Source: Escherichia coli
GTDB lineage: Bacteria > Pseudomonadota > Gammaproteobacteria > Enterobacterales > Enterobacteriaceae
Length of the DNA stretch: 64,000 nt
NCBI RefSeq assembly: GCF_044324875.1
Contig: NZ_CP172185.1
Direction: 5' to 3' (one strand)
Shown: piece by piece, positions 1,801 to 60,225 of the stretch
Layout of the letters: every line of letters begins with the position of its first letter
Position numbering within the stretch: the first letter of the stretch is position 1
Translations under genes and position numbers: made by a program
The notes under the pieces: model-generated
The model's input: the letters and a program-made list of their open reading frames with translations, nothing else
Told to the model about the DNA's origin: nothing
Databases searched by the model: none

Positions 1801-1834
1801 CAGCCCGACGAACTGTTTCGCCGGGCTGATTTTT
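1801..1834 (+). terminator. Rho-independent terminator after perM (shared 3' region with convergent focB)
   Basis: 12-bp stem cagcccgacgaa/ttcgccgggctg (one mismatch), 4-nt loop, followed by T-run. Confidence 0.6.
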
Positions 1835-2681
1835 AGGGTTCCTGACGTAAATAAATAGCCCGATAACAAATACTCACCAGCACTGCACCGCCGATAATAT
1901 TACCCAGCATCACCGGGAGCAGATTGGCGGTAATAAAATGGCTGACCGTCAGTGCCGGAAAATGGTCTGCGCTACTGTGCGCCAGTTGCCAGAAGGTGGT
2001 AGGGGCGAAATGGCGAATGGCAATGGCGAACGGAATCACAAACAAATTGGCGATACAGTGCTCAAAACCACTGGCGACAAACAGGGTGATGGGCAAAATC
2101 ATGGCGACGATTTTGTCGCATAACGAACGTCCGCAATAACTCATCCACAGCGCCAGACAAACCATCAGATTGCACATAATGCCGAGGCTGACTGATTCAG
2201 TAAATGTATGATGCATTTTGCCCTCGGCGCAGTGTAAAACCGCGACTCCCCACATCGCGTTTTCACTCATCACCAGCCCGGAAAACCAGGTTAACAAACT
2301 GAAACAGGCAATACCTGCCAGATTACCGCAGGCCACCAGAAGTGCATTAATCAGCCAAGTTCGCCAACTAATAACGCCCCGACTTTTTGCCATTACCGTC
2401 ATTACCGACGAGGTGAACAGGTTGGTGCCGCAAACCGCCAGCAAAATAAAGCCAAGTGTAAAGCAAAGGCCGCCCACCAGATGGGTTAATGCCTGTGAAG
2501 ACGGGGCATCGGCGATAACGGAAAGGTAAAAAGTAAATCCGATCGCCATAAACATGCCAGCGGACATCGCCATTAAAAAGACCGACACTTTACTGCGGGC
2601 AATTTTATGGGCGGCAATCCGTTCAGCGATTGCCGCTTTTCTGGCGCTCAACTGCAAGTCGAAAGAGAGTTTGTTTCTCAT
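1833..2681 (-). CDS. focB: Formate channel FocB (formate/nitrite transporter family)
   Basis: 282 aa membrane ORF immediately downstream of hyfR on the same strand; matches known FocB. Confidence 0.93.
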   Translation of the reverse strand: MRNKLSFDLQLSARKAAIAERIAAHKIARSKVSVFLMAMSAGMFMAIGFTFYLSVIADAPSSQALTHLVGGLCFTLGFILLAVCGTNLFTSSVMTVMAKSRGVISWRTWLINALLVACGNLAGIACFSLLTWFSGLVMSENAMWGVAVLHCAEGKMHHTFTESVSLGIMCNLMVCLALWMSYCGRSLCDKIVAMILPITLFVASGFEHCIANLFVIPFAIAIRHFAPTTFWQLAHSSADHFPALTVSHFITANLLPVMLGNIIGGAVLVSICYRAIYLRQEP

Positions 2682-2702
2682 GCATACTCCTGCAAAAACA
2701 GA

Positions 2703-4715
2703 TTACAACACCTCGCGAACCGAGATCCCCAGCCGCTGCATTCGTGACAGCAGCGTGGTGCGCTTCATCCCTAATCGCGTCGCCGCGCCACGGGGCCCGG
2801 CAACAATGCCATTGGTTTCTCGCAATACCTGAACAATGCGCTGACGTTCTTCTTCGTCATTCTCTGGCGTCGTCGGGTGCAGCAATTGCGCCATTGAACT
2901 GCGAAGCGCTGAATCTTCATTTAGCGTCGGCAGTAAACGGCTTTGTCGGACATTAAGATGTAAATTCAGACTGTTACCGCGAGTCAGTAGTACCGCTCGC
3001 TCAATCACGTTTTCCAGCTCGCGCACGTTGCCCGGCCAGTCCCACGACATCAACTGGCGTAGCGCCTCGGTCGGGATGGCGTCAATTGCGCGATTCATAT
3101 GGCGCGCCATTTTTTGCGTGAAATGCTTTGCTAAAAGAGGGATATCTTCCGGACGGTCGCGCAGCGGCGGCAATTCCAGTGGGAAGACATTCAGGCGATA
3201 AAAGAGATCGCTGCGAAACTGGCGATCTTCAACCATTTGCCACAAATCACGGTTGGTGGCGGCAATGACTCTGACATTTACCGGGATCGTTCTACTCCCG
3301 CCGAGACGCTCAATCTCCCGTTCCTGCAATACGCGCAGCAGTTTAGGCTGAAGTTCTAACGGCAGATCGCCAATTTCATCGAGAAACAACGTGCCGCCAT
3401 CGGCAATTTCAAAACGACCACGATGGGTATTAATCGCACCAGTAAACGCCCCTTTGTCATGACCGAATAACTCACTTTCCAGAAGACTGGCGGGGATGGC
3501 AGCGCAGTTGATTTTGACCAGTGGCTTGTCGCGTCGTGGGCTAAGTTGATGGATCGCTCTGGCGATCACCTCTTTGCCGGTTCCGGTTTCACCACAAATC
3601 AACACCGTACTGTCGCTCTTCGCCACAATATCTACCTGCTGGAGCAAATCTTCCATTGCCTGGCTTTGATAGATAATGTCACCGACGCCCAGATTCGAAA
3701 GGAGCTGCTCGCTAAGCTGGTGGTTTTCTTGCTGCAAGCTTTCCTGCAAATCGGTCATGCTGCGCCAGGCATCGGCATTGCCAACGGCAATAGCGATGCG
3801 ATCGGCAATATGTTGTAGTAGCTGGCAGTTTTCCTCACTAAAGAGAGTGGAAGAGGTATGCGCCAGCAACAATGCGCCCGGTGTATGGTTGCCAAAGGTG
3901 AGCGGTATAAGGAGCGCAGATTCGCAGCCGTTAGATGCAAGTAAGTGTAATAACGGGTCGCGTTGCCAGAGAAACAGATCGTCTGCACGGTGCGTCAAGG
4001 TCGGTTGTCGGGTTTGTAGCGTTTGTGTCAGCAATACACTTTCGCCAGGCATACAGCGTGGCAGACACGCACAATGTGAGGCAGAAAGATCGCTGCACCA
4101 CAGGCTGAACTTCTCGTTCTTTCGATGATCGCCCAGTACCATACTGACTGAAGCCAGACCGAAAAAATGATGGATCTCACGAGCGACGTCAGCGATCAGA
4201 TCGTCGAGATCAAGATGTGACAGCACTGCATTAGTGATATCCACCAGTACCCGATGATGATCGCGATCTTTCTCCAGCAAACGCAGCGCCACCTGTTGTT
4301 CTTCATCATTGAGCCATGATTGCAGAACCGGGGTGATAATGCGTGCCAGCCAGTTAAACAGTGTGCAATCCTGGGGAGTAAAACGCCTGCCGTGGGTACG
4401 AATAAAGCGTAGCTCCGCCATTCCACTACTGCCGAGAAGGACGGCGTGACGCGAATAATCGACCATCTCGCCCTGATACTCTGTTGTTGCCGTCACATCG
4501 CTGCCATCATCATGGTAGCGGTAATAGAAGTTGCTTTTGAGAACATGCAGTTCAATAAGTTGTACCGGGCTGAACGGCGGCGGCAGCGGGATGAAGGCGC
4601 GTAATAAAGACGCCTTGCCGTGTTTCTGCGCTAACCGCTCCGCGAGCATTCCGTTTACCGCTTCAATTGTTATTCCTTGCGGCGGGGCAAACATCGCCTC
4701 GTCTGACATAGCCAT
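2703..4715 (-). CDS. hyfR: Sigma-54-dependent transcriptional activator of the hyf operon (FhlA-like)
   Basis: Contains GETGTGKE Walker A and GAFTGA sigma-54 contact motif, C-terminal HTH; ATG at 4715 gives 670 aa (track ORF begins one codon earlier at a TTG). Confidence 0.93.
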
Positions 4716-4744
4716 CAACAGTCCTTATTAATGAGAAATCCTTC

Positions 4745-5158
4745 TCACGCAATTTTTCTGGCCATCAGATAGATGGCCGGTTCCTGCACAATTTCATCCA
4801 ACAGATGAATGAATTGAATGCTACGCGCCTGCCACGCCGACGTCGCGTCATCTGCCAGTGGCGCGAATGCCCGGGTCAACAGGGCGGTGTGGCTGGCGTC
4901 AATAACAATCTCACCAAAAGTCATCACCCCCAGCATCTTACGTCGGGCTTGCTCCTCTTCGACCAGTGCAAGCCAATCTTCGTATTCCGTCAGTGGGCAG
5001 CGGAAGGCGACATTCAGACAATCAATCACGCCAACGTGATGGCCGATAGCCAACGAGTAATACATTACCTGGGAGCTGTGTTCCGGCATCTCGTCGCTAC
5101 TGGCGATAAATTTTTTTCGCAGCGTCCAGAAAACAATTTCCCTGCACTCCTCAGCCAT
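4745..5158 (-). CDS. hyfJ: Hydrogenase-4 maturation/assembly protein (HycH-like)
   Basis: 137 aa ORF, last gene of hyf structural cluster before hyfR. Confidence 0.9.
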
Positions 5159-5909
5159 GTAACCCCCGGAGAACGCGAAAGAGTTGCTGAACGATACTAT
5201 TGAGACGCGGATCGTCGGCTTCGCGCAACCAGGTGTTAACCCGATTTCCTGTGGGATCGTCGCTTAAATGGCGCAGGAGTCGATCGCAAATTTCTCGCCC
5301 TTGACGATAGCCCGCCAGCCGCCTCGCTTCTCGCTCAATGGCGATACGCTGTGATGGCGGGATCTGCGGCCACAGCGGTTGCATGGTCACCCCGGTGGGA
5401 TCGCGATAATCCACCGCGTGAATCTTCTGTTGCAGCAAACCGAGCGCCACGGCGAAACCGTGAATGGTGGCGGCCGGTGTTGGCGGGCAGCCGGGGATCC
5501 AAACATCAATGGGGACAATGGTGTCGCTGCCGCCCCAGACGCTGTAGAGATCGTGGAAAATACCGCCGCCGACACCGCACGCGCCGTAGGAAACACAGAT
5601 TTTATGATCGGGGGCAGACTCATACGCCCGAAGTGCAGGCATACGCATCGCCCGGGTGACTGCGCCAGTAAATAACAAAATATCGGCGTGACGCGGTGAT
5701 GAAACAACCTTAATGCCAAAACGTTCTGCGTCGAATACTGGTGTGATGGCGGCAAAAATTTCGATTTCGCAGGCGTTGCAGCCGCCGCAATCGACGCGAT
5801 AAACGTAGGCCGAGCGACGGATATCCTGTAACAAATGCTGCTTCATCTTTTGCGTTTGCTCGTCCAGCGTGATGGGCTGGCTGACATGTTGCGTAAGCAC
5901 TGGACTCAT
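5151..5909 (-). CDS. hyfI: Hydrogenase-4 small subunit (NuoB-like, Fe-S)
   Basis: 252 aa ORF with conserved cysteine ligands (CGGCN, GCPP); overlaps hyfJ start by 8 nt. Confidence 0.93.
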
Positions 5910-6451
5910 AGCTGCTCCTTAGCCACCAGCGGTTCATCTGTGTCGTCGTTGATCAGCGTCGCGCGTTGTTTGCATTCCGGGCAGACGCTCGCTTGCGCCC
6001 GTAACATTTCGCGGTTTTGTGGCGCATTTTGTTGCTGTGCCAACAGTTCTGCAGCCAGTACGACGGTTTTTTGCGGGGCAAACGGGCGTTCGCAACGGCT
6101 GCAACGTTGTAGATGGAACGTCGCGCGGGTATAGAGATCGGCTTTATTGGTGACGGTCAGTTCAAAGTTATTGGTAAGCTGAATGGCTCTGGTCGGGCAC
6201 ACTTCTTCACAACGTCCGCAGTAAATACAACGCCCCAGATAGAGCTGCCAGGTGCGCGTATTTTGCTGGTCGTCGGTCTGGATAGTCAGCGCATTTGCCG
6301 GACAAGCACAGGCGCAGGCACCGCAGGCAATACATTGGCTGGGCATCAGGTCCGGTTTCCCGCGAAAGCCTGGGCTGACTTCCAGTGGTGCGAAGGGATA
6401 TTTCACCGTCGCGGTTCCGGCGCGCATAATAGTTTTCAGTAACTTCAGCAT
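5906..6451 (-). CDS. hyfH: Hydrogenase-4 ferredoxin-like subunit (2x 4Fe-4S)
   Basis: 181 aa; two CxxCxxCxxxCP motifs ([24 protein letters not shown]). Confidence 0.93.
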
Positions 6452-6460
6452 CTTCTGTCC

Positions 6461-8176
6461 TTACTTCAGCGGCGAACGGTTACGATCAATGCCGTAGCGT
6501 TCGATCTCTTTATACGGCACGGTTTTTGACTGGCGCTTGCGCACATCAACCAGCGTCACACGGTCGGTACAGGAGTAGCAGGGATCAAGGCTACCGATAA
6601 TCAGCGGTGCGTCAGAAACGGTATTGCCGCGCAGCATGTAACGCAGCACTGGCCAGTTGGCGTAGGTGGCGGCACGACAGCGCCAGCGGAACAATTTTTG
6701 GTTATCACCGAGCATGCTCCAGTGCACGTCTTCACCACGTGGCGCTTCAACAAAGCCCAGCGCGAATGCGTGAGGTTTATAGCTAAAGCCTTCGGTCAGC
6801 AGTGGGGTATCTGGCATGTTGTCGAGGGCAAATTCCAGCATTGCCAGCGAATCAAACGTCTCTTTGACACGGACCATCACGCGGGAGAAGACATCGCCGC
6901 CGGTAAAGGTAAACAGCGTTTTGGGAATATTGCCGTAGTCGGCGTAGGGGTGATCAAAGCGCAAATCACGGGCAAAACCACTGCCGCGGATCAGCGGCCC
7001 TACGGGGCTATAATCACGGGCGATTTGTCGGTCGAGAATGCCAATGCCCTGAGTGCGTTGTTCCATATTCGGCGTGGCAAGCAGCATCTCTACCAGCTCC
7101 GACACGTCAGCGCGCATCTCGCGCACTAGTTTCAGCGTTTGCAGACGTTGCTCTTTGAGAATATCGCGGCGAACACCACCAATCAGATTCAGACCGTAGG
7201 TTTTACGCGACCCGGTCAGCAATTCCGCCATCGTCATCGACTTTTCCCGCACGCGGAAAAATTGCATAAAGCCGGTATCAAATCCAACAAAATGGCAGGA
7301 GAGGCCAAGGTTGAGCAAATGACTATGCAGCCGTTCGACTTCCAGCAGAATCGAGCGAATAGTATGCGCTCGTTGCGGCACCTCAATCCCCAGTGCATTT
7401 TCAACCGAGTTGGTATAGGCCACACTGTGGGCAAAACCGCAAATCCCACACACGCGGTCGGATAAGAAGGTCACTTCGTTGTAGCCCATCCGCGTTTCTG
7501 CCAGTTTCTCCATGCCGCGATGGACATAAAACAGGCGGTAATCAGCATCGACAATTTGCTCGCCATCCACAAACAAGCGGAAGTGACCTGGTTCATCGGA
7601 GGTGATATGCAGCGGGCCGACAGGGATAACCCGCGCATCGCTGTTGCCCTCGTTGATAAACGGATACGTTTCGGTATCAGTCGTCGGTTCTGGGCGCAGT
7701 CGATAATCCATCGCGTCTTTGCGCAGCGGATGCATATCTTCCGGCCAGTCATCGGGCAACACCAGCCGACGCTGATCCGGCAGGCCAACCGGAATCAGCC
7801 CGTACATATCGCGAATTTCTCGCTCGCCCCAGACCGCGGCAGGGACGCGCGGTGTGACTGACGGAAACTCCCGACTGTCGGCATCGACCAGTGCCTTCAC
7901 CACGATCCAGCATTTTTCGGCCCCTTCCATAGAAAGGGCATAATAAACCGCGTAATGACCGTTAAGTGTCCGCTCGTCGTTGCCAAACAGGACTGGAAGC
8001 CAGCCATCATGTTGATAATAAAGATAATGCACAACGTCAGGCAGCAGATTGATTTTCACCGTAATGGTGACCTGTTCAGGCGTTTGTCGCTCTTCATCCA
8101 GCACCGCGCCGGGGAACTGCGTTTTCAGGGCGGCGAGAATCGCTTCGCCACGATTTGACGATGAATTAACGTTCAC
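6461..8176 (-). CDS. hyfG: Hydrogenase-4 [NiFe] large catalytic subunit
   Basis: N-terminal [11 protein letters not shown] and C-terminal DPCYSCTDR nickel-ligand motifs; chosen start is GTG at 8176 (MNVNSSS...) preceded by GGAG SD; the track ORF extends to an ATG at 8221 that lacks an SD. Confidence 0.88.
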
Positions 8177-9746
8177 TGTGTTTCTCCGAAACAGATGCGG
8201 TGCCTGAAGGCAAAAAATCATGCCAGGTGCTACGTTGTGCAGGCAGGTCGTGCGTCCCTGAGAGGACTATAGTGGAAGCGCCCGCCAGGATCCTGATGAC
8301 AGGTTGTGGAATATGCGTTCCCATCGCCAGCATCATGACCAGCAGAATCACCATTGGCGAGGTGGTCAACCAGCCAAGTTCACCCCGGTTAACGGCCTGC
8401 GGCGGTTTCGCCATTAACACCCGCGCAGCCATCCGTACCAGGCCCGCCAGCACCAGCGTTAACAGAAATAACAGCAGGACGATAAGCAGCAGATGATTAC
8501 GCGCCAGTCCGGCGGTAACGGTCATAAATTCGCTAAGAAAAATGTTGAAGGGCGGCATCCCGGCCAGCGCCAGCGCACCGCCGCCAAACAACACGGCGGT
8601 AAATGGCATGATTTTGAGCATCCCACAGACGACGTTGAGATCGCGCGTGCCGTACTTGAGCAGTACATTGCCGGAACCGCAGAACAACAGCGTTTTTGCC
8701 AGACTGTGGTTTAAGGTGTGCAGCAGCGCGGCAAAAATTCCCAGCGGCCCGCCAATGCCTAACGCCACCGCGACCAGTCCCATGTTCTCCACGCTGGAGT
8801 ACGCCAGCAGACGCTTAATGTCCCGCTGTACCAGAATGAAAAATGCCGCCACGGCAACCGACAACATGCCGAAGATGAGCAACAACCGGTTGGGGAAATC
8901 GCTGCCGATGGCCTGGCAAATAATGATGTAATAGCGAATCAGCACCAACAGCGCGCAGTTCAGCAATACGGCGGAGAGCAGGGCGCTGACCGGACTCGGC
9001 GCTTCACTGTGAGCATCTGGCAGCCAGGCGTGCATGGGGAATAGCCCGGTTTTAGTGCCAAAGCCAATTAGCACGAACACAAAGGCCAACAGCATTAATG
9101 TTGGGTCAAGCAAGGACGATTGCTTAAGAACCTCGCTCCAGAATATCGCCATTTCTGCCTGCGGCATAACGCTGGCGGCGTTGGCGTATACCAGCACGGT
9201 ACCGAACAGACCAAAAGCGACACCAACAGTACAAATAATGATGTACTTCCATGCAGCTTCCAGCGATGAACGCTGACCGTAAATGCCTACCAGAAACGCC
9301 GAGCTTAAGGTGGTGGCTTCGATCGCCGCCCACATCACAATAAGGTTATTGCTGGTGACAACCAGCAGCATGGTGAACAAAAACAGATGGAAGAAACCGT
9401 AGTAATCGCACAGCGTAACGGGTGAAAGCTCGCCGTGTGCCACTTCATGACGCATGTAGCCAATCGAGTAAACACCGGTGAGAAAGCCAATCACACCAAG
9501 AATGGCGAGGAACAAACCGCCCAGACCATCAATGTGAAGCCACAGTCCCGCAGCGAATATTTCTCCCGCATCAGCGGCAGTTTGGACCACCCACAGTGCC
9601 AGAATCAGCAGCAGTGTGATCCCTAAGCCATGTAGTACTGTCACCGTGCGAGTCGCAGAGTGTCCCCGTTTCCGGCAGGCAAAACAGAGCAGCGAAAAAA
9701 GCAGCGGCGTGAGCAGGAGTAAAGCGAACATCACAGAATAACTCAT
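8166..9746 (-). CDS. hyfF: Hydrogenase-4 membrane subunit, complex I antiporter-like (NuoL/M/N family)
   Basis: 526 aa polytopic membrane ORF, matches HyfF. Confidence 0.93.
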
Positions 9747-9750
9747 TTCA

Positions 9751-10401
9751 TTATCCCTTCAGCGCGGTCAAGTTGTTCACGTCCAGCGTGCCGTGGGTAC
9801 GCCATATTTTTCTTGCCAGTAACACCATTACAATGACGGCGAAGATGGCGTCGGTAGCGATACCAATTTCCACCAGTTCCGGTGCACGCCAGGCTAGAAG
9901 CGCCAGCACCAGATGGGAGCCGTTTTCCATCAGGCAGTAACCAAAAATTTGCCGCAGGATATTGCGCTGGCTGACAATGCACAGCAGGCCAAGCAGAAAA
10001 TGACCTAACGCCACCGCCAGCGCCGGTTTCAGCCCGGTAGCCATCGGTAGCTTCACGGGCTGAACGACAAATGCGCAAAGCAGGACAATTAACGCCGCGA
10101 GCAGTGTCATCATTGCCGGACCGAATAACGCTTTTTCCGGGATGTTCTGGGGAATATTTCGTGCAGCGTAAGTCATGATTAACGGTACCAGCAGCACTTT
10201 GGTGATAAAGGCGCTGGCGGACCAGATCAGCAGTTGCTCTGCGGCGAACAGGCACGAGAGGGTGGCGAAAATAGACACCAGCACCAGCGACTGGCAGGCG
10301 TAAAATCCGCATGACAGGCGATAGCTTTTGACGCTAATCACAAACAGCGATGTCAGCATCATCAGTCCCGCCAGATTATTTACGATCATAGAACCGGTCA
10401 T
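9751..10401 (-). CDS. hyfE: Hydrogenase-4 membrane subunit
   Basis: 216 aa hydrophobic ORF in conserved position. Confidence 0.9.
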
Positions 10402-10412
10402 TCATCATCTCC

Positions 10413-11852
10413 TTACTGCAACCAGGTCGCGGCGATTACGCTGGAAATCAGCGACATCACAATCAGTACAATCAACACCAGGCGCATTGATCCTGGCAGC
10501 GGTGCGGCATCGGCGACGGCCTCGCTCGGTTTGCCAGGCACGACGCGACCAAACCAGCGAATAAACCAGGCGAAACTGGCGACCGATTCAATCATCAGCA
10601 GAATTATGGCGGGCAGCAGGATCCAGTACTCCACTGACAACGCAAAACCGGCGGCAAACAGCGGGAATTTACTGAAGAAGCCGTTGAACGGCGGTACGCC
10701 GGTAATCGCCAGCGCTGCCACGCAGAACCCCACGCCTGGCAACGGCAGGGTGTGCAATACGCCACGCAGACGCGGCAACAGGCGCGTGCCGCAGCTGTAA
10801 CTCAGCGCACCTGCTACAAGGAAAAACAGGCTTTTAGCGAACGCGTGGTTGACGATGTAGGCGATGCTGCCCTCCAGTGCCAGCCGCGAGCCGAAGATGG
10901 AGAGCGACAAGCCGAAGAACATCCAGCCAAGTTGAGTGATGGTCGACCAGGCCAGCAACCGCTTCATATCCTGCTGTGGCAAATACATCAGGAAGCCATA
11001 AAGAATGGTGACCAGTGCCATGACCATGCCAACGCCGCCAATCACATGCGGGATATTGCCGCCGTCGATAATGGCGCGGGCAAAAATGTAAACGCCCACT
11101 TTCACCATCGATGCGGCGTGGAGATAGGCGCTGATCGGTGTTGGCGCTTCCATTGCATCCGGTAGCCACGCTTGCATCGGTAGCTGGGCCGATTTCCCCC
11201 ACGCGGCAAACAGGATGCCGCCATAAACCAGATAACGTGCGTCGCCGTGTAACTCGCTCATCGCGCTGAGCGCAAACGTTCCGGTCTGCAAAAACAGCGT
11301 GGCGGCGGCAAGATACAACCCCAGCGAACCGATATGAGTGATAAGCAACGCTTTTAGTGCTGAACGCTGCGCTTTATCGCTCTGGTAATAACTGATCAAC
11401 GCCCAGGAGCAGCCGCCCGTAATTTCAAAAAACAACAACTGACCGAGCAGCGTCGAGGAGAGTACCAGTCCCGCCATCGCGCCGATAAAAACCAGCAAAA
11501 ATGCGTAATAACGATTCGTGCCGTTATGCGGGTGTTCGCGATTTTTATCCGTCAGATAACCCGTGGAGTAGATCGTGACCAGCAAACCGAGGAACACCAC
11601 CACAAACAGAATCAGCGTACTCACGCGATCAATGACCAGGCCAAACAACGCCACATCCCCTACGTTGACCAACGTCAACGTGACGGCAACTTTATCGGCC
11701 TGATAAAACGCGGAGATCAGCGACAACATGCACAGCGTGGTCAGCGCGGCGAACAAAACCCCCCATTCGGCGGCCCGACGTTGTGGCGAAAACGAAACGA
11801 CCAGTGCGCCGATAAAAGGCAGCAATAACGTCGTCAGAGCAAGATTTTCCAT
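10413..11852 (-). CDS. hyfD: Hydrogenase-4 membrane subunit, antiporter-like (NuoM/N family)
   Basis: 479 aa polytopic ORF, matches HyfD. Confidence 0.93.
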   Translation of the reverse strand: MENLALTTLLLPFIGALVVSFSPQRRAAEWGVLFAALTTLCMLSLISAFYQADKVAVTLTLVNVGDVALFGLVIDRVSTLILFVVVFLGLLVTIYSTGYLTDKNREHPHNGTNRYYAFLLVFIGAMAGLVLSSTLLGQLLFFEITGGCSWALISYYQSDKAQRSALKALLITHIGSLGLYLAAATLFLQTGTFALSAMSELHGDARYLVYGGILFAAWGKSAQLPMQAWLPDAMEAPTPISAYLHAASMVKVGVYIFARAIIDGGNIPHVIGGVGMVMALVTILYGFLMYLPQQDMKRLLAWSTITQLGWMFFGLSLSIFGSRLALEGSIAYIVNHAFAKSLFFLVAGALSYSCGTRLLPRLRGVLHTLPLPGVGFCVAALAITGVPPFNGFFSKFPLFAAGFALSVEYWILLPAIILLMIESVASFAWFIRWFGRVVPGKPSEAVADAAPLPGSMRLVLIVLIVMSLISSVIAATWLQ

Positions 11853-11868
11853 ATTCCGTCAGTGCTCC

Positions 11869-12816
11869 TTACAGACCGGTTAACCAGAAGACCCATGCAA
11901 GCGCAGCAAGGCTGAAGCCAAGCCAGGTCACATGGTGAATGAGTAAAAAACGCCCGCGTGCCAGCGTGTTTTCTGCGATTGAGGCCAGTACAAAAATCAG
12001 CAAAACCTTGAGCAGCGTAACGACAAGAGAAGTCAGCAGGCAGGCGAGAGAAAGTTCTTGCGCGCGCCCAAAGGGCAGAAACAGGGCCACAAACAGTGAT
12101 GCCATCACGACCTGTTTCAGCCCCAGCCCGCATTTCGCCAGCGCCAGCCCGGCACCGGAATATTCGGTCAGCGGGCCTTCCTGTAATTCCTGTTCTGCTT
12201 CAGCAACATCAAAGGGAATTTTTCCCATCTCAATGAAGCAGGCAAAACCACAGGCCAGTAACGCCAGTACGGTGGTTAGCGGCGAGCTCCAGCGCGTTGC
12301 CAGCGTATTGCTGATCATCTCGATATGCGTGGAACCCGCTATCAGCGCCAATACCAGCAGTGAGAGAATGAGCATGGGTTCGACCAGAATGCCGAGCGTC
12401 AACTCGCGACTGGCACCGACTCCCGCAAAGGGGCTTCCGGTATCCAGCCCGGAAAGAGCAAAGAAAAAACGAAACAGGGCAAGAAGATAGATAAGGGTGA
12501 TCAGATCGCCGCCGCCCGCAAAAGGGGAAACAGTAATAAATAGTGGTAGAGCCATCGCCAGCACCAGCATGCTGCTGATTAATACCCACGGCATCAGGCG
12601 GAACATCAGACCTGAAGATGTCGGCGCAACTTCCTGGCGTTTAAACAGTTTGTGGATATCGCGATAATCCTGCCAGATCCCCGGTCCGCGACGGGAGTGC
12701 ATTCGCGCGCGTATCTGCCGGGAAATCCCCGTAAAAAGCGGGGTTAGCGCCAGCAGAATCACGGCCTGTGCTAACGCAAAAATGATCAGATATCCGTCGC
12801 AAAGAGTTTGTCTCAT
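11869..12816 (-). CDS. hyfC: Hydrogenase-4 membrane subunit (NuoH/HycD-like)
   Basis: ATG at 12816 (MRQTLCDGYL..., 315 aa) preceded by AAGGAA SD; track ORF is extended 7 codons upstream. Confidence 0.9.
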   Translation of the reverse strand: MRQTLCDGYLIIFALAQAVILLALTPLFTGISRQIRARMHSRRGPGIWQDYRDIHKLFKRQEVAPTSSGLMFRLMPWVLISSMLVLAMALPLFITVSPFAGGGDLITLIYLLALFRFFFALSGLDTGSPFAGVGASRELTLGILVEPMLILSLLVLALIAGSTHIEMISNTLATRWSSPLTTVLALLACGFACFIEMGKIPFDVAEAEQELQEGPLTEYSGAGLALAKCGLGLKQVVMASLFVALFLPFGRAQELSLACLLTSLVVTLLKVLLIFVLASIAENTLARGRFLLIHHVTWLGFSLAALAWVFWLTGL

Positions 12817-12826
12817 GGTGATTTCC

Positions 12827-14845
12827 TTAGACGGCAATAGCGATTAGCAGCACAACCAGTGCGGCGACCACATACAGGCAATAGAGACGAAAGTCGCCGC
12901 TTTGCAGATGCTGTATTTCTTTGGCCAGCCGTTGGGTGGCGCTCACGATGGGGCGGATCACCCGCTCATCCCAGAAGGGTTCTGTGCTCTGAGCCCTGGC
13001 GGTGACATGCGCAAGACCTTTGTTCAGCCTCAGCGTAGGGTCGAGCTGTTGTCGTAGACGAAATAGCGCACAAAAGACCACACGCAGCGGTTGCATCACG
13101 CCATTGCCTGACGGGGCCATCGCATTATCCCAGCCGTAGCCGCATGCCCAGGCATCTCCTGTGCGACGAAACGCTGCGCGGCGCGAACGACACCACAGCC
13201 AGTAAAGGCCAGGCAGCAAAGGCATCGCCAGTAGTAACAGCAACAGTAATGAGGGAGTGACCCGTGTATGAAACGTGCCTGGTACAAGTGCTATTCCGCT
13301 GGCGACAGTGACGGGAGGGGTATTGGTAAACGCATGGGCAATGTGCATTATCTTCGGTGCCAGCCAACTGGCACTAAGCGCAATGAATACGCAGAGTGCC
13401 GCGAGCAGTAGCATGGCGACGATCATCGTATTCGGCACTTCCTGTGCCTCTTCAGCGTGTGTACTGCGCGGCGCTCCACAGAAAGTAATACCGTACATTT
13501 TGACGAAGCACATTACTGCCAGCCCACCAGTGACTGCCAGCATCACCATAGCAATAGGACCCGCAAGTTGTAGCGCTACGGCTTCCACACGACTTAGTGA
13601 GAACAGCGACTGCCAGGTGTACCATTCGCTGATAAAACCATTCAGCGGAGGAATAGCAGATATCGCGAGGCAACCAATCAGGCATGCTGCGGCTGTCCAC
13701 GGCATACGTTTCGCCAGTGCCCCCATTTTTTCCATGTCGTGGGTATGCAAACGCGAAATAATCGCACCCGCGCCGAGAAACAGCAGCCCTTTGAACAGCG
13801 CATGGTTGAGCAGATGAAACAGTGCGCCGAGCAGTCCAACCACGGTGAGCAGCGGGTCGTGCAGTGACAGACCGACCATCGCCACACCGACTGCCAGCAA
13901 AATAATGCCGACGTTTTCGACGGTACTCCAGGCCAGCAGCCGTTTGATATCCTGTTCCGCCAGCGCATACAGCACGCCCAGGAGCGCGGAGATTGCGCCG
14001 ATCGCCATCACCAGAATGCCCCACCACAGCGGCAAACCCGTTTGCGCCAGCAGGTCCATCGCTACTTTCAGGATGCCGAAAATACCGATTTTGACCATTA
14101 CGCCAGACATCAACGCCGAAGCGTGCGATGGTGCGGCAGGGTGAGCGCGTGGCAACCAGCTGTGCAACGGCATCATCCCGGCTTTCGCGCCAAAACCGAA
14201 GAAGGCCAGCAGGAACACCGCCGACGCCAGCCCCGGAGAAAGTGAAAGCGTGCGGAAACTGACAAAATCGAGGCTGCCGCTTTCGCGCCACATCAGCAAG
14301 AAGGCGATCATAATCAGCACCGATCCGGCGTGGGCGATAAAAAAGTAGAGCATGCCAGCGTTGATTGACGTTTTATCCTGCCTGGCAATGACCAGAAACC
14401 AGGAAGACAGCGACATCATTTCAAACAGCACGATGAACCAAAAAGCGTTGTCCATCACCAGCAGGGCAACCATCGATGCGATGAAAAGATTCATAAAGAA
14501 GCCCATCGCCGCCGCGCCTTTGCCCTCGTATTCGCGCATATAAGTCAATGAATAGAGAGAACAAACCACCACCAGCAAGGAGATAACCAGCACCATAAAT
14601 GCCGAGAGGCTATCCATTCGCAGGGTTAAATCGGCAAAGTCAAAAGGCGTGGCAAAACGGGCGACTAAAGTTACGCCTGCATGTAATTGCGTAATTCCGC
14701 TGATGATGCCAATCACGCCACCCACCAGCGATGTGATGCCGGAAAGCTTAATAGCCAGTCTGTCCAGACCGAGTAAAAACAGCGAAGCCAGACTGGCAAA
14801 CAGATAGAGGATCAGCGACCAGGTTAATAATTGCAGGGCATCCAT
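12827..14845 (-). CDS. hyfB: Hydrogenase-4 membrane subunit, antiporter-like (NuoL family)
   Basis: 672 aa polytopic ORF; start overlaps hyfA stop (TAATG). Confidence 0.93.
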   Translation of the reverse strand: MDALQLLTWSLILYLFASLASLFLLGLDRLAIKLSGITSLVGGVIGIISGITQLHAGVTLVARFATPFDFADLTLRMDSLSAFMVLVISLLVVVCSLYSLTYMREYEGKGAAAMGFFMNLFIASMVALLVMDNAFWFIVLFEMMSLSSWFLVIARQDKTSINAGMLYFFIAHAGSVLIMIAFLLMWRESGSLDFVSFRTLSLSPGLASAVFLLAFFGFGAKAGMMPLHSWLPRAHPAAPSHASALMSGVMVKIGIFGILKVAMDLLAQTGLPLWWGILVMAIGAISALLGVLYALAEQDIKRLLAWSTVENVGIILLAVGVAMVGLSLHDPLLTVVGLLGALFHLLNHALFKGLLFLGAGAIISRLHTHDMEKMGALAKRMPWTAAACLIGCLAISAIPPLNGFISEWYTWQSLFSLSRVEAVALQLAGPIAMVMLAVTGGLAVMCFVKMYGITFCGAPRSTHAEEAQEVPNTMIVAMLLLAALCVFIALSASWLAPKIMHIAHAFTNTPPVTVASGIALVPGTFHTRVTPSLLLLLLLAMPLLPGLYWLWCRSRRAAFRRTGDAWACGYGWDNAMAPSGNGVMQPLRVVFCALFRLRQQLDPTLRLNKGLAHVTARAQSTEPFWDERVIRPIVSATQRLAKEIQHLQSGDFRLYCLYVVAALVVLLIAIAV

Positions 14846-15462
14846 TAGCGTTGCTCCTGAGTGAGGGAAAGGGGATCCTCCCCGCCATTGGCAAACCAGC
14901 TTGCGGCAAGGCGCTGTTTTTCTTTCATCTGACGTTGCAGGCTATCGCCGGTGATCAGCCGTAACGCCTGATTCGGGCAAGCGCGAACGCAGGCCGGACC
15001 TTCTGGCAAGAAATCACACAGGTCGCATTTCACCGCGACGGTCTGGACACCCGGTTCCCAGCGCAGCAAAGCATGTTGGGTTGGCGCGTTTTCTTCGCCG
15101 TCTTTGAGTGAGCCCTCAGCCTGAAAAACATATTGCGCAGGGGCATTCACCGGACGGCTTCCTGAAGCGCTGATTGCGCCAAATGGGCAGACCACGGCAC
15201 AAAGCTTGCAGCCAATACAGAGGCTTTCGTTGAGTTGGATCGCATCATCCCTCTGGGAGATGGCATTGACCGGGCAGACCTGCAGGCAAGGGGCTTCCTC
15301 ACAGTGATGACACACGACAGGGGCAGTGAGTGTTGACGTCTTCGCCAGGGCCAGGCGCGGGTGTTGCTGTAAACCTTGCGTTTTATGCACGTCCGAACAG
15401 GCAGCGAGACAGGTATTACATCCTGTACACCACAGTGGTTCGGCCACCACAAAGCGGTTCAT
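14845..15462 (-). CDS. hyfA: Hydrogenase-4 ferredoxin-type electron transfer subunit (4x Fe-S cluster motifs)
   Basis: ATG at 15462 (MNRFVVAEPLWCTGCNTC..., 205 aa) with AGGAG SD; four Cys-cluster motifs; track ORF is extended 13 codons. Confidence 0.92.
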   Translation of the reverse strand: MNRFVVAEPLWCTGCNTCLAACSDVHKTQGLQQHPRLALAKTSTLTAPVVCHHCEEAPCLQVCPVNAISQRDDAIQLNESLCIGCKLCAVVCPFGAISASGSRPVNAPAQYVFQAEGSLKDGEENAPTQHALLRWEPGVQTVAVKCDLCDFLPEGPACVRACPNQALRLITGDSLQRQMKEKQRLAASWFANGGEDPLSLTQEQR

Positions 15463-15503
15463 GTCGGCTCCTTGAAAATGATATGAAACATTGCATTTCA
15501 TAT

Positions 15504-60190: not shown

Positions 60191-60225
60191 AGGCCAGCCA
60201 GTATCACAACTGACTGGCCTTTTTA
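60191..60225. terminator. Bidirectional terminator between convergent yfeX and yfeW
   Basis: Stem aggccag/ctggcct with T-run on the plus strand and A-run/T-run on the minus strand. Confidence 0.6.

Follow-up and report, generated by a model that had tools for sequence, protein, structure and literature searches.

In the window, by which we mean the whole stretch of 64,000 nt analysed from Escherichia coli contig NZ_CP172185.1, the hyfG gene very probably starts at GTG 8176 on the minus strand. Initiation at this codon would be positioned by a GGAG Shine-Dalgarno (SD) sequence and probably also be fed by ribosomes coming from hyfF, while an ATG further upstream at 8221, which opens the longest ORF, would be a chance by-product of the hyfF sequence. 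In the proposed course of events the GGAG at 8187-8184 places a 30S subunit, or a ribosome arriving from the end of hyfF, on GTG 8176, and the product would be a HyfG of 571 residues starting with MNVNSSS. The GTG start and its 11-nt overlap with hyfF are the existing reference annotation of a well-known operon and as such already known.

The minus strand of the window carries the hyfABCDEFGHIJR-focB operon for hydrogenase 4 (Hyd-4), or formate hydrogenlyase-2 (FHL-2), with all hyf ORFs in full length. Over 60 kb the window runs collinear with E. coli strain 7/2 at an identity of 98.35%. The hyfF CDS (8166..9746, minus strand; taken from ORF and translation and concordant with RefSeq) encodes the hydrogenase-4 membrane subunit F with 526 aa, which matches the NCBIfam equivalog NF005041.0 with residues 1-526 on a profile of 526 positions (1174.7 bits, cutoff 951). 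The hyfG CDS from GTG (6461..8176, minus strand) encodes the catalytic large subunit with 571 aa plus stop. When the 586-aa form starting at ATG 8221 is used for the domain search, an N-terminal NuoC-like (30 kDa) domain is found at residues 54-170 (PF00329, E = 6.7e-24), and the C-terminal part is recognized as a NuoD-like/NiFe large-subunit domain (PF00346, E = 4.8e-50; PF00374, E = 2e-14). The translation contains RVCGICG as well as DPCYSCTDR, the latter followed by 32 residues (VTLVD...SPLK); a 32-residue peptide of HyfG has been described by Finney et al. 2020 (PMC7654741). With these features HyfG would be classed as a group 4a [NiFe]-hydrogenase large subunit, a NuoC-NuoD fusion of the HycE type.

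A preliminary description of this region had presented the start of hyfG as ambiguous. It had placed the longest-ORF start at ATG 8221, without SD and 56 nt inside hyfF, and the preferred start at GTG 8176, with a GGAG SD, an 11-nt hyfF/hyfG overlap and an N-terminus MNVNSSS that differs by 15 residues from the longer one. Direct reading of the strand reproduces these positions exactly. The GTG occupies 8174..8176 and the GGAG 8184..8187, inside the hyfF coding sequence, with a spacer of 7 nt (AAACACA) between them. The hyfF stop codon TAA (8166..8168) follows three codons into hyfG, so that both genes share 11 nt (8166..8176, spacing -11), as against 56 nt if hyfG is counted from the ATG. The ATG (8219..8221), which we judge not to be a start, lies 45 nt or 15 codons upstream of the GTG and opens an ORF of 586 aa (6461..8221). 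Going upstream, the hyfG frame meets its first stop in a TAG at 8269-8267, and up to there ATG 8221 is the sole ATG, GTG or TTG ahead of GTG 8176. It arises where the Trp-His-Asp codons of hyfF (TGG-CAT-GAT) are read in the +1 frame, and the 15 codons that follow it would have remained open by chance. According to our own arithmetic, which takes codon usage as uniform, 15 codons are free of stops with a probability of (61/64) to the power of 15, or about 0.49, and an open frame some codons 5' of a true start is therefore unremarkable. Two in-frame candidates thus do exist, as had been described, but their ambiguity is a formal one, because the comparative data presented below settle on the GTG.

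The GTG is the annotated start of hyfG in all 14 RefSeq E. coli genomes examined, including K-12 MG1655 (NC_000913.3), in which 2608497 is the last position of hyfF and 2608487 the first of hyfG. The K-12 genes (hyfF, b2486; hyfG, b2487; UniProt HYFG_ECOLI) are the same as those of the window, with the GTG, the 11-nt overlap and the N-terminus in common; the K-12 protein is shorter (555 aa versus 571 aa) by 16 internal residues, a difference unrelated to the start. The numbering used in the literature is in line with this, as Finney et al. 2020 (PMC7654741) give the site of the HyfG His-tag as Gly-85/Ala-86. An exact-sequence look-up in public collections leads in the same direction: GTG forms of HyfG are found on at least 1000 contigs each, the exact 571-aa sequence on at least 1000 contigs under the name HyfG, and the ATG-extended forms on 9 contigs (586 aa, including WP_001309644.1) and 20 contigs (570 aa, K-12-type). 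These few annotations are one of the points in favour of ATG 8221 as the sole start, which would give a HyfG of 586 aa and an overlap of 56 nt. The longest ORF also opens with this codon, and ATG initiates more strongly than GTG. The 14 RefSeq annotations and the published numbering contradict such a start, and together with the evidence given in the following we regard it as extremely improbable.

The two codons differ clearly in their SD sequences. The duplex between SD and anti-SD at GTG 8176 has an energy of -6.6 kcal/mol, which belongs to the top 3.2% of the 853 NTG triplets found on the minus strand between window positions 30 and 16000. At ATG 8221 the best value is +0.6 kcal/mol, which means no pairing, and 87% of the NTG triplets are equal or better. 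For the other hyf genes energies of -5.1 to -9.3 kcal/mol were calculated, so that the value of hyfG is typical for this operon. The start codon itself is less typical, since hyfG has the sole GTG among nine located starts from hyfC to focB (hyfI was not matched).

Homology boundaries point to the same codon. HycE, the catalytic subunit of formate hydrogenlyase-1 (PDB 7Z0S/7Z0T, chain E), is a paralogue of HyfG and likewise a NuoC-NuoD-type fusion, and the alignment of both proteins runs through the whole N-terminal domain (E = 2.4e-67). An alignment with HycE N-termini had been proposed in the preliminary description as a check, and it favours the GTG: residue 4 of HycE (7z0s_E) pairs with residue 7 of HyfG in GTG numbering. 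Relative to HycE the GTG form therefore has 3 extra residues and the ATG form 18. All matches to HycE, NCBIfam and Pfam start at or after residue 17 of the 586-aa form, and residues 1-16 are not reached by any Pfam or NCBIfam model, so that neither HycE nor the family models contain a counterpart of the extension, which speaks against ATG 8221 as the only start. In the long query, the top database relatives cover residues 16-182 exactly, and they start with MNVNSSS. NCBIfam contains no HyfG-specific equivalog that scores above cutoff, hence this library does not place the N-terminus. Leader length is not decisive in itself. Orthologues have between about 6 and about 18 residues ahead of the conserved G..Y/I-L/V-A motif, and length alone is thus no argument against ATG 8221.

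For a comparison across genera we used the hyfF loci of Klebsiella indica, four Citrobacter, Phytobacter ursingii and Brenneria, seven loci from outside E. coli; the Superficieibacter locus (L010) was left out as a decayed hyf locus without hyfG. A GGAG followed by a spacer of 7-8 nt and a GTG is present in all seven of them. In a seven-taxon alignment GGAGA and GTGA form contiguous invariant blocks within a stretch that is otherwise weakly conserved (mean column identity of 63%), and a start at the ATG would leave these blocks unexplained. The position of the E. coli ATG reads CAA, CAC or CGT in the other genera compared. This is the place of the HyfF His codon, and with these other codons there ATG 8221 is specific for E. 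coli. Furthermore, in four of the seven loci the hyfG frame contains a stop upstream of the GTG, at a distance of 11 codons in K. indica, 11 in Citrobacter sp. NCU1, 14 in Phytobacter and 8 in Brenneria (L003, L006, L007, L008), with no start in between. An N-terminal extension is therefore impossible in these four loci. In two of the Citrobacter loci (L004, L009) an in-frame GTG is found at the position homologous to E. coli ATG 8221, so that, judged from the sequences, an upstream start may be conceivable in some lineages.

The start of hyfG is conserved in this way, and the length of its overlap with hyfF varies. Phytobacter and Citrobacter sp. NCU1 have a GTGA with a spacing of -4, E. coli and Brenneria have -11, and the remaining Citrobacter share -23 with K. 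indica. Compared with this last state, the E. coli sequence shows a gap of 12 nt directly behind GTGAA which is in frame for both genes and takes four codons from each; the HyfF tail lacks LFRQ, and the N-terminus of HyfG lacks Y-S/L-D-S.

Within E. coli a query of 601 nt over the junction matches 4294 of 5426 complete genomes, always with the annotation hyfF followed by hyfG, and over 136 nt of the junction 4280 of these 4294 genomes reach an identity of at least 99%. The K-12-type junction (BW25113, H97) differs from that of the window at one of 136 nt (99.3%). Because the junction is nearly invariant in E. coli, population data lack the power to discriminate between the starts. Variants which break the 15-codon extension were sought over the 4294 genomes, and a single match with an indel, PK8217, was obtained. 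This indel is probably an assembly artefact, since frameshifts are called in hyfD and hyfF of PK8217 too.

The fixation of the ATG in E. coli bears on the idea that both codons are used, the GTG for the main product and the ATG for a minor, E. coli-specific isoform with 15 additional residues. Nothing in the sequence forbids this: the frame is open, and initiation within coding regions that is independent of an SD occurs at low levels. On the other hand the ATG has no SD and is not conserved beyond E. coli, no sign of selection on the extension was seen, and its invariance in E. coli is explained by HyfF coding together with low diversity of the species. In addition, the ATG site is constantly crossed by ribosomes elongating hyfF. 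We consider a second, minor start at the ATG to be very unlikely. GTG 8176 as the start of hyfG is consistent with annotation, conservation across genera, SD energetics, homology boundaries and published numbering alike, so that the preference for the GTG in the preliminary description is borne out. A literature search for ribosome profiling or N-terminal proteomics of hyfG initiation found none, and Hyd-4 is, according to the literature, barely expressed in laboratory E. coli.

The architecture of the junction makes translational coupling from hyfF to hyfG plausible. Within the hyf operon, in which all measured junctions are tight (-11 to +29 nt), hyfF and hyfG are direct neighbours with the same orientation, and annotation and literature place HyfF and HyfG in one complex. 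Coupling is probable because the hyfF stop lies three codons past the hyfG start and because both proteins would be subunits of one membrane complex (Hyd-4/FHL-2). Ribosomes ending hyfF would then probably feed initiation at hyfG, beside ordinary SD-directed initiation, either by a short backward repositioning (termination-reinitiation or scanning) or merely by keeping the site unfolded. For overlapping unidirectional gene pairs encoding one complex, termination-reinitiation coupling has been demonstrated (Huber et al. 2019, PMC6728339; 2023, PMC10666635). With these pairs and with those covered by a recent review (PMC12548453, 2025) hyfF/hyfG shares that the genes are co-directional neighbours of one operon, that their products belong to one heteromeric complex, that the downstream start precedes the stop by a few nucleotides and that the SD lies inside the upstream ORF. 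According to the same review scanning ribosomes prefer the start closest to the stop, which would favour 8176 over 8221. The spacing is a point of difference. Coupled overlapping pairs are enriched for -4, -1 and -8, and coupling persists but weakens from -4 towards -25 (PMC12548453); hyfF/hyfG of E. coli has -11, and the canonical GTGA (-4) is that of Phytobacter and Citrobacter sp. NCU1. As -11 falls outside the enriched classes and coupling weakens with the length of the overlap, we expect coupling to be partial at best. The paralogous hyc operon has two membrane subunits where hyf has five, so that no hyfF-type gene would precede that of HycE.

The same facts on spacing can be read to mean that the GTG is the start but that initiation is driven purely de novo by the SD, the 11-nt overlap being compact packing without any coupling. 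Independent initiation appears feasible, as the SD of hyfG equals in strength those found at hyf genes with intergenic gaps. There is also no inhibitory RNA structure which would need unfolding: a region of 110 nt around the ribosome binding site (RBS) of hyfG folds no better than its shuffles (z = -0.19), which gives no specific support for the version of coupling by RNA unfolding. The drift of the overlap among the genera (4, 11 and 23 nt) speaks against selection for one geometry. Against a complete independence of the two genes stands that a ribosome terminating at 8168-8166 physically covers both the GTG and the SD, so that translation of hyfF must affect hyfG initiation in one way or the other. 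Moreover, the distance between start and stop stays at 4-23 nt in all genera examined, and overlapping unidirectional pairs of one complex are just the class with experimentally observed coupling (PMC10666635, PMC6728339; reviewed in PMC12548453). We therefore regard initiation entirely without coupling as rather unlikely, and prefer a GTG start with partial input from hyfF. Published coupling data for hyfF/hyfG were not found in the literature search. A small hairpin in this region, UGUUUC-GGA-GAAACA, is according to the alignment not conserved in the other genera.

Apart from its start, hyfG shows a difference in length among E. coli strains. The RefSeq gene has 1716 nt in strain 7/2, which resembles the window, and 1668 nt in others; relative to the allele of the window, K-12 MG1655 and WF5-5-T2 carry an in-frame deletion of 48 nt. 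The indel is bounded by a 10-nt repeat, GCCCGTGATT, with copies at window positions 7021-7012 and 6973-6964. Of the 4294 complete E. coli genomes that possess hyf, 2096 have the 48-nt segment, so that the deletion is carried by about half, and on an evenly spaced genome sample a junction query gave a split of 15 versus 14, with one row unassigned. The long allele, which encodes 571 aa in the window, is by sequence comparison the ancestral one, because the segment is present in Citrobacter HyfG and in HycE. Its GP..R.SG core is also kept in MbhL of the Pyrococcus membrane-bound hydrogenase and in a mitochondrial ND7, and in part in Thermus Nqo4 (GG..RASG). The motif that is deleted is thus conserved from hydrogenases to complex I. 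Three sites vary within the segment, and all of the changes are synonymous.

Among 14 genomes compared, a common local haplotype is found in all seven short alleles, which group as a single clade over the 1.4 kb around the indel; when 4.6 kb are used, they come to lie in two places. This pattern fits one origin of the deletion followed by recombination. Several lineages have in addition frameshifts in hyfI or internal stops in hyfF. The inactivity of Hyd-4 in K-12 has been called a "long-standing mystery" (Lindenstrauss & Pinske) and stayed unexplained despite promoter replacement, swaps of the assembly peptide and an added maturation protease (Finney et al. 2020, PMC7654741). We found no mention of the 48-nt hyfG deletion in the freely available literature searched. 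The difference between the hyfG alleles may be more consequential than the finding on the start codon.

With the start at GTG 8176, the few older records in which hyfG is called as the longest ORF (586 or 570 aa) are to be seen as over-extended. A correct HyfG N-terminus is of practical use when the protein is tagged, when its residues are numbered and when the structure of Hyd-4/FHL-2 is studied. It is conceivable, but in our view a long shot, that a minor isoform with 15 additional residues arises from the ATG, or that the drift of the overlap (-4, -11, -23) tunes the amount of HyfG per HyfF. If one of these were true, the hyfF/hyfG junction would be a small natural example of how start sites or coupling strength evolve in a complex-I-like enzyme.

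Comparing the catalytic large-subunit gene of hydrogenase 4, hyfG, among E. coli genomes reveals two length alleles. The window carries an allele encoding 571 aa, with the indel region at 6964-7021 on the minus strand. An in-frame deletion of 48 nt inside the gene is found in K-12 MG1655 (locus L011, 9636-9660) and in about half of the hyf-bearing E. coli; the segment is kept in 2096 of the 4294 complete genomes of this species which bear hyf. The deletion is flanked by two 10-nt direct repeats (GCCCGTGATT) and removes 16 residues from HyfG. The core of the lost segment, GP..R.SG, is conserved in the formate hydrogenlyase-1 paralogue HycE, in MbhL of the Pyrococcus membrane-bound hydrogenase and in mitochondrial ND7, and partly in Nqo4 of Thermus. 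Judged by sequence comparison, the long form is the ancestral state of hyfG. Because the seven short alleles sampled all have one local haplotype in common, the data point to a single origin of the short allele. In the literature the inactivity of hydrogenase 4 in K-12 is described as unexplained, and in the open literature on this enzyme in K-12 we found no mention of the 48-nt deletion.

A second length difference is located at the hyfF/hyfG junction, where E. coli lacks 12 nt in comparison to Citrobacter, K. indica and Phytobacter. This gap (window ~8171, minus strand) directly follows the GTGAA of hyfG and preserves the reading frame of each of the two overlapping genes, costing HyfF the residues LFRQ of its tail and HyfG four residues of its N-terminus, and shortening the overlap from 23 nt to 11 nt.

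As at hyfG, the longest ORF does not match the annotated start at two further genes of the minus strand: for hyfA (14845-15501) it comprises 218 aa versus 205 aa annotated, and for hyfC (11869-12837) 322 aa starting with TTG versus 315 aa starting with ATG.

The 64 kb of the window are collinear with E. coli strain 7/2 from murP to bepA, a stretch that takes in the eut operon, maeB, tal-tkt, narQ, acrD and hyf, apart from an IS200C-family element (tnpA) which strain 7/2 harbours between pbp4b and yfeX and which the window lacks (~60220-60224). By this collinearity naRNA4 / CssrE (RF02564, 23605-23682, minus strand, 85.7 bits) could be placed in the ypfN-ypfH intergenic region. It is the sole Rfam match above the gathering score in the entire window, and no tRNA genes were found across the 64 kb.

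A decayed hyf locus was observed in Superficieibacter sp. 1612_C1 (locus L010, 2500-5000), where broken-up hyfF reading frames pass directly into hyfR-like and focB-like remnants and hyfG is absent.

All hyf genes of the window (1833-15501) are full length. Among complete E. coli genomes, 1132 out of 5426 are without hyf. According to RefSeq, hyfI is frameshifted in E. coli E2865, AUSMDU00014361, O91 RM7190 and LP5-1 (loci L015, L016, L020 and L024), and RM7190 and LP5-1 additionally have an internal stop in hyfF. Considering these frameshifts and stops, the hyf operon seems to be decaying in several E. coli lineages.
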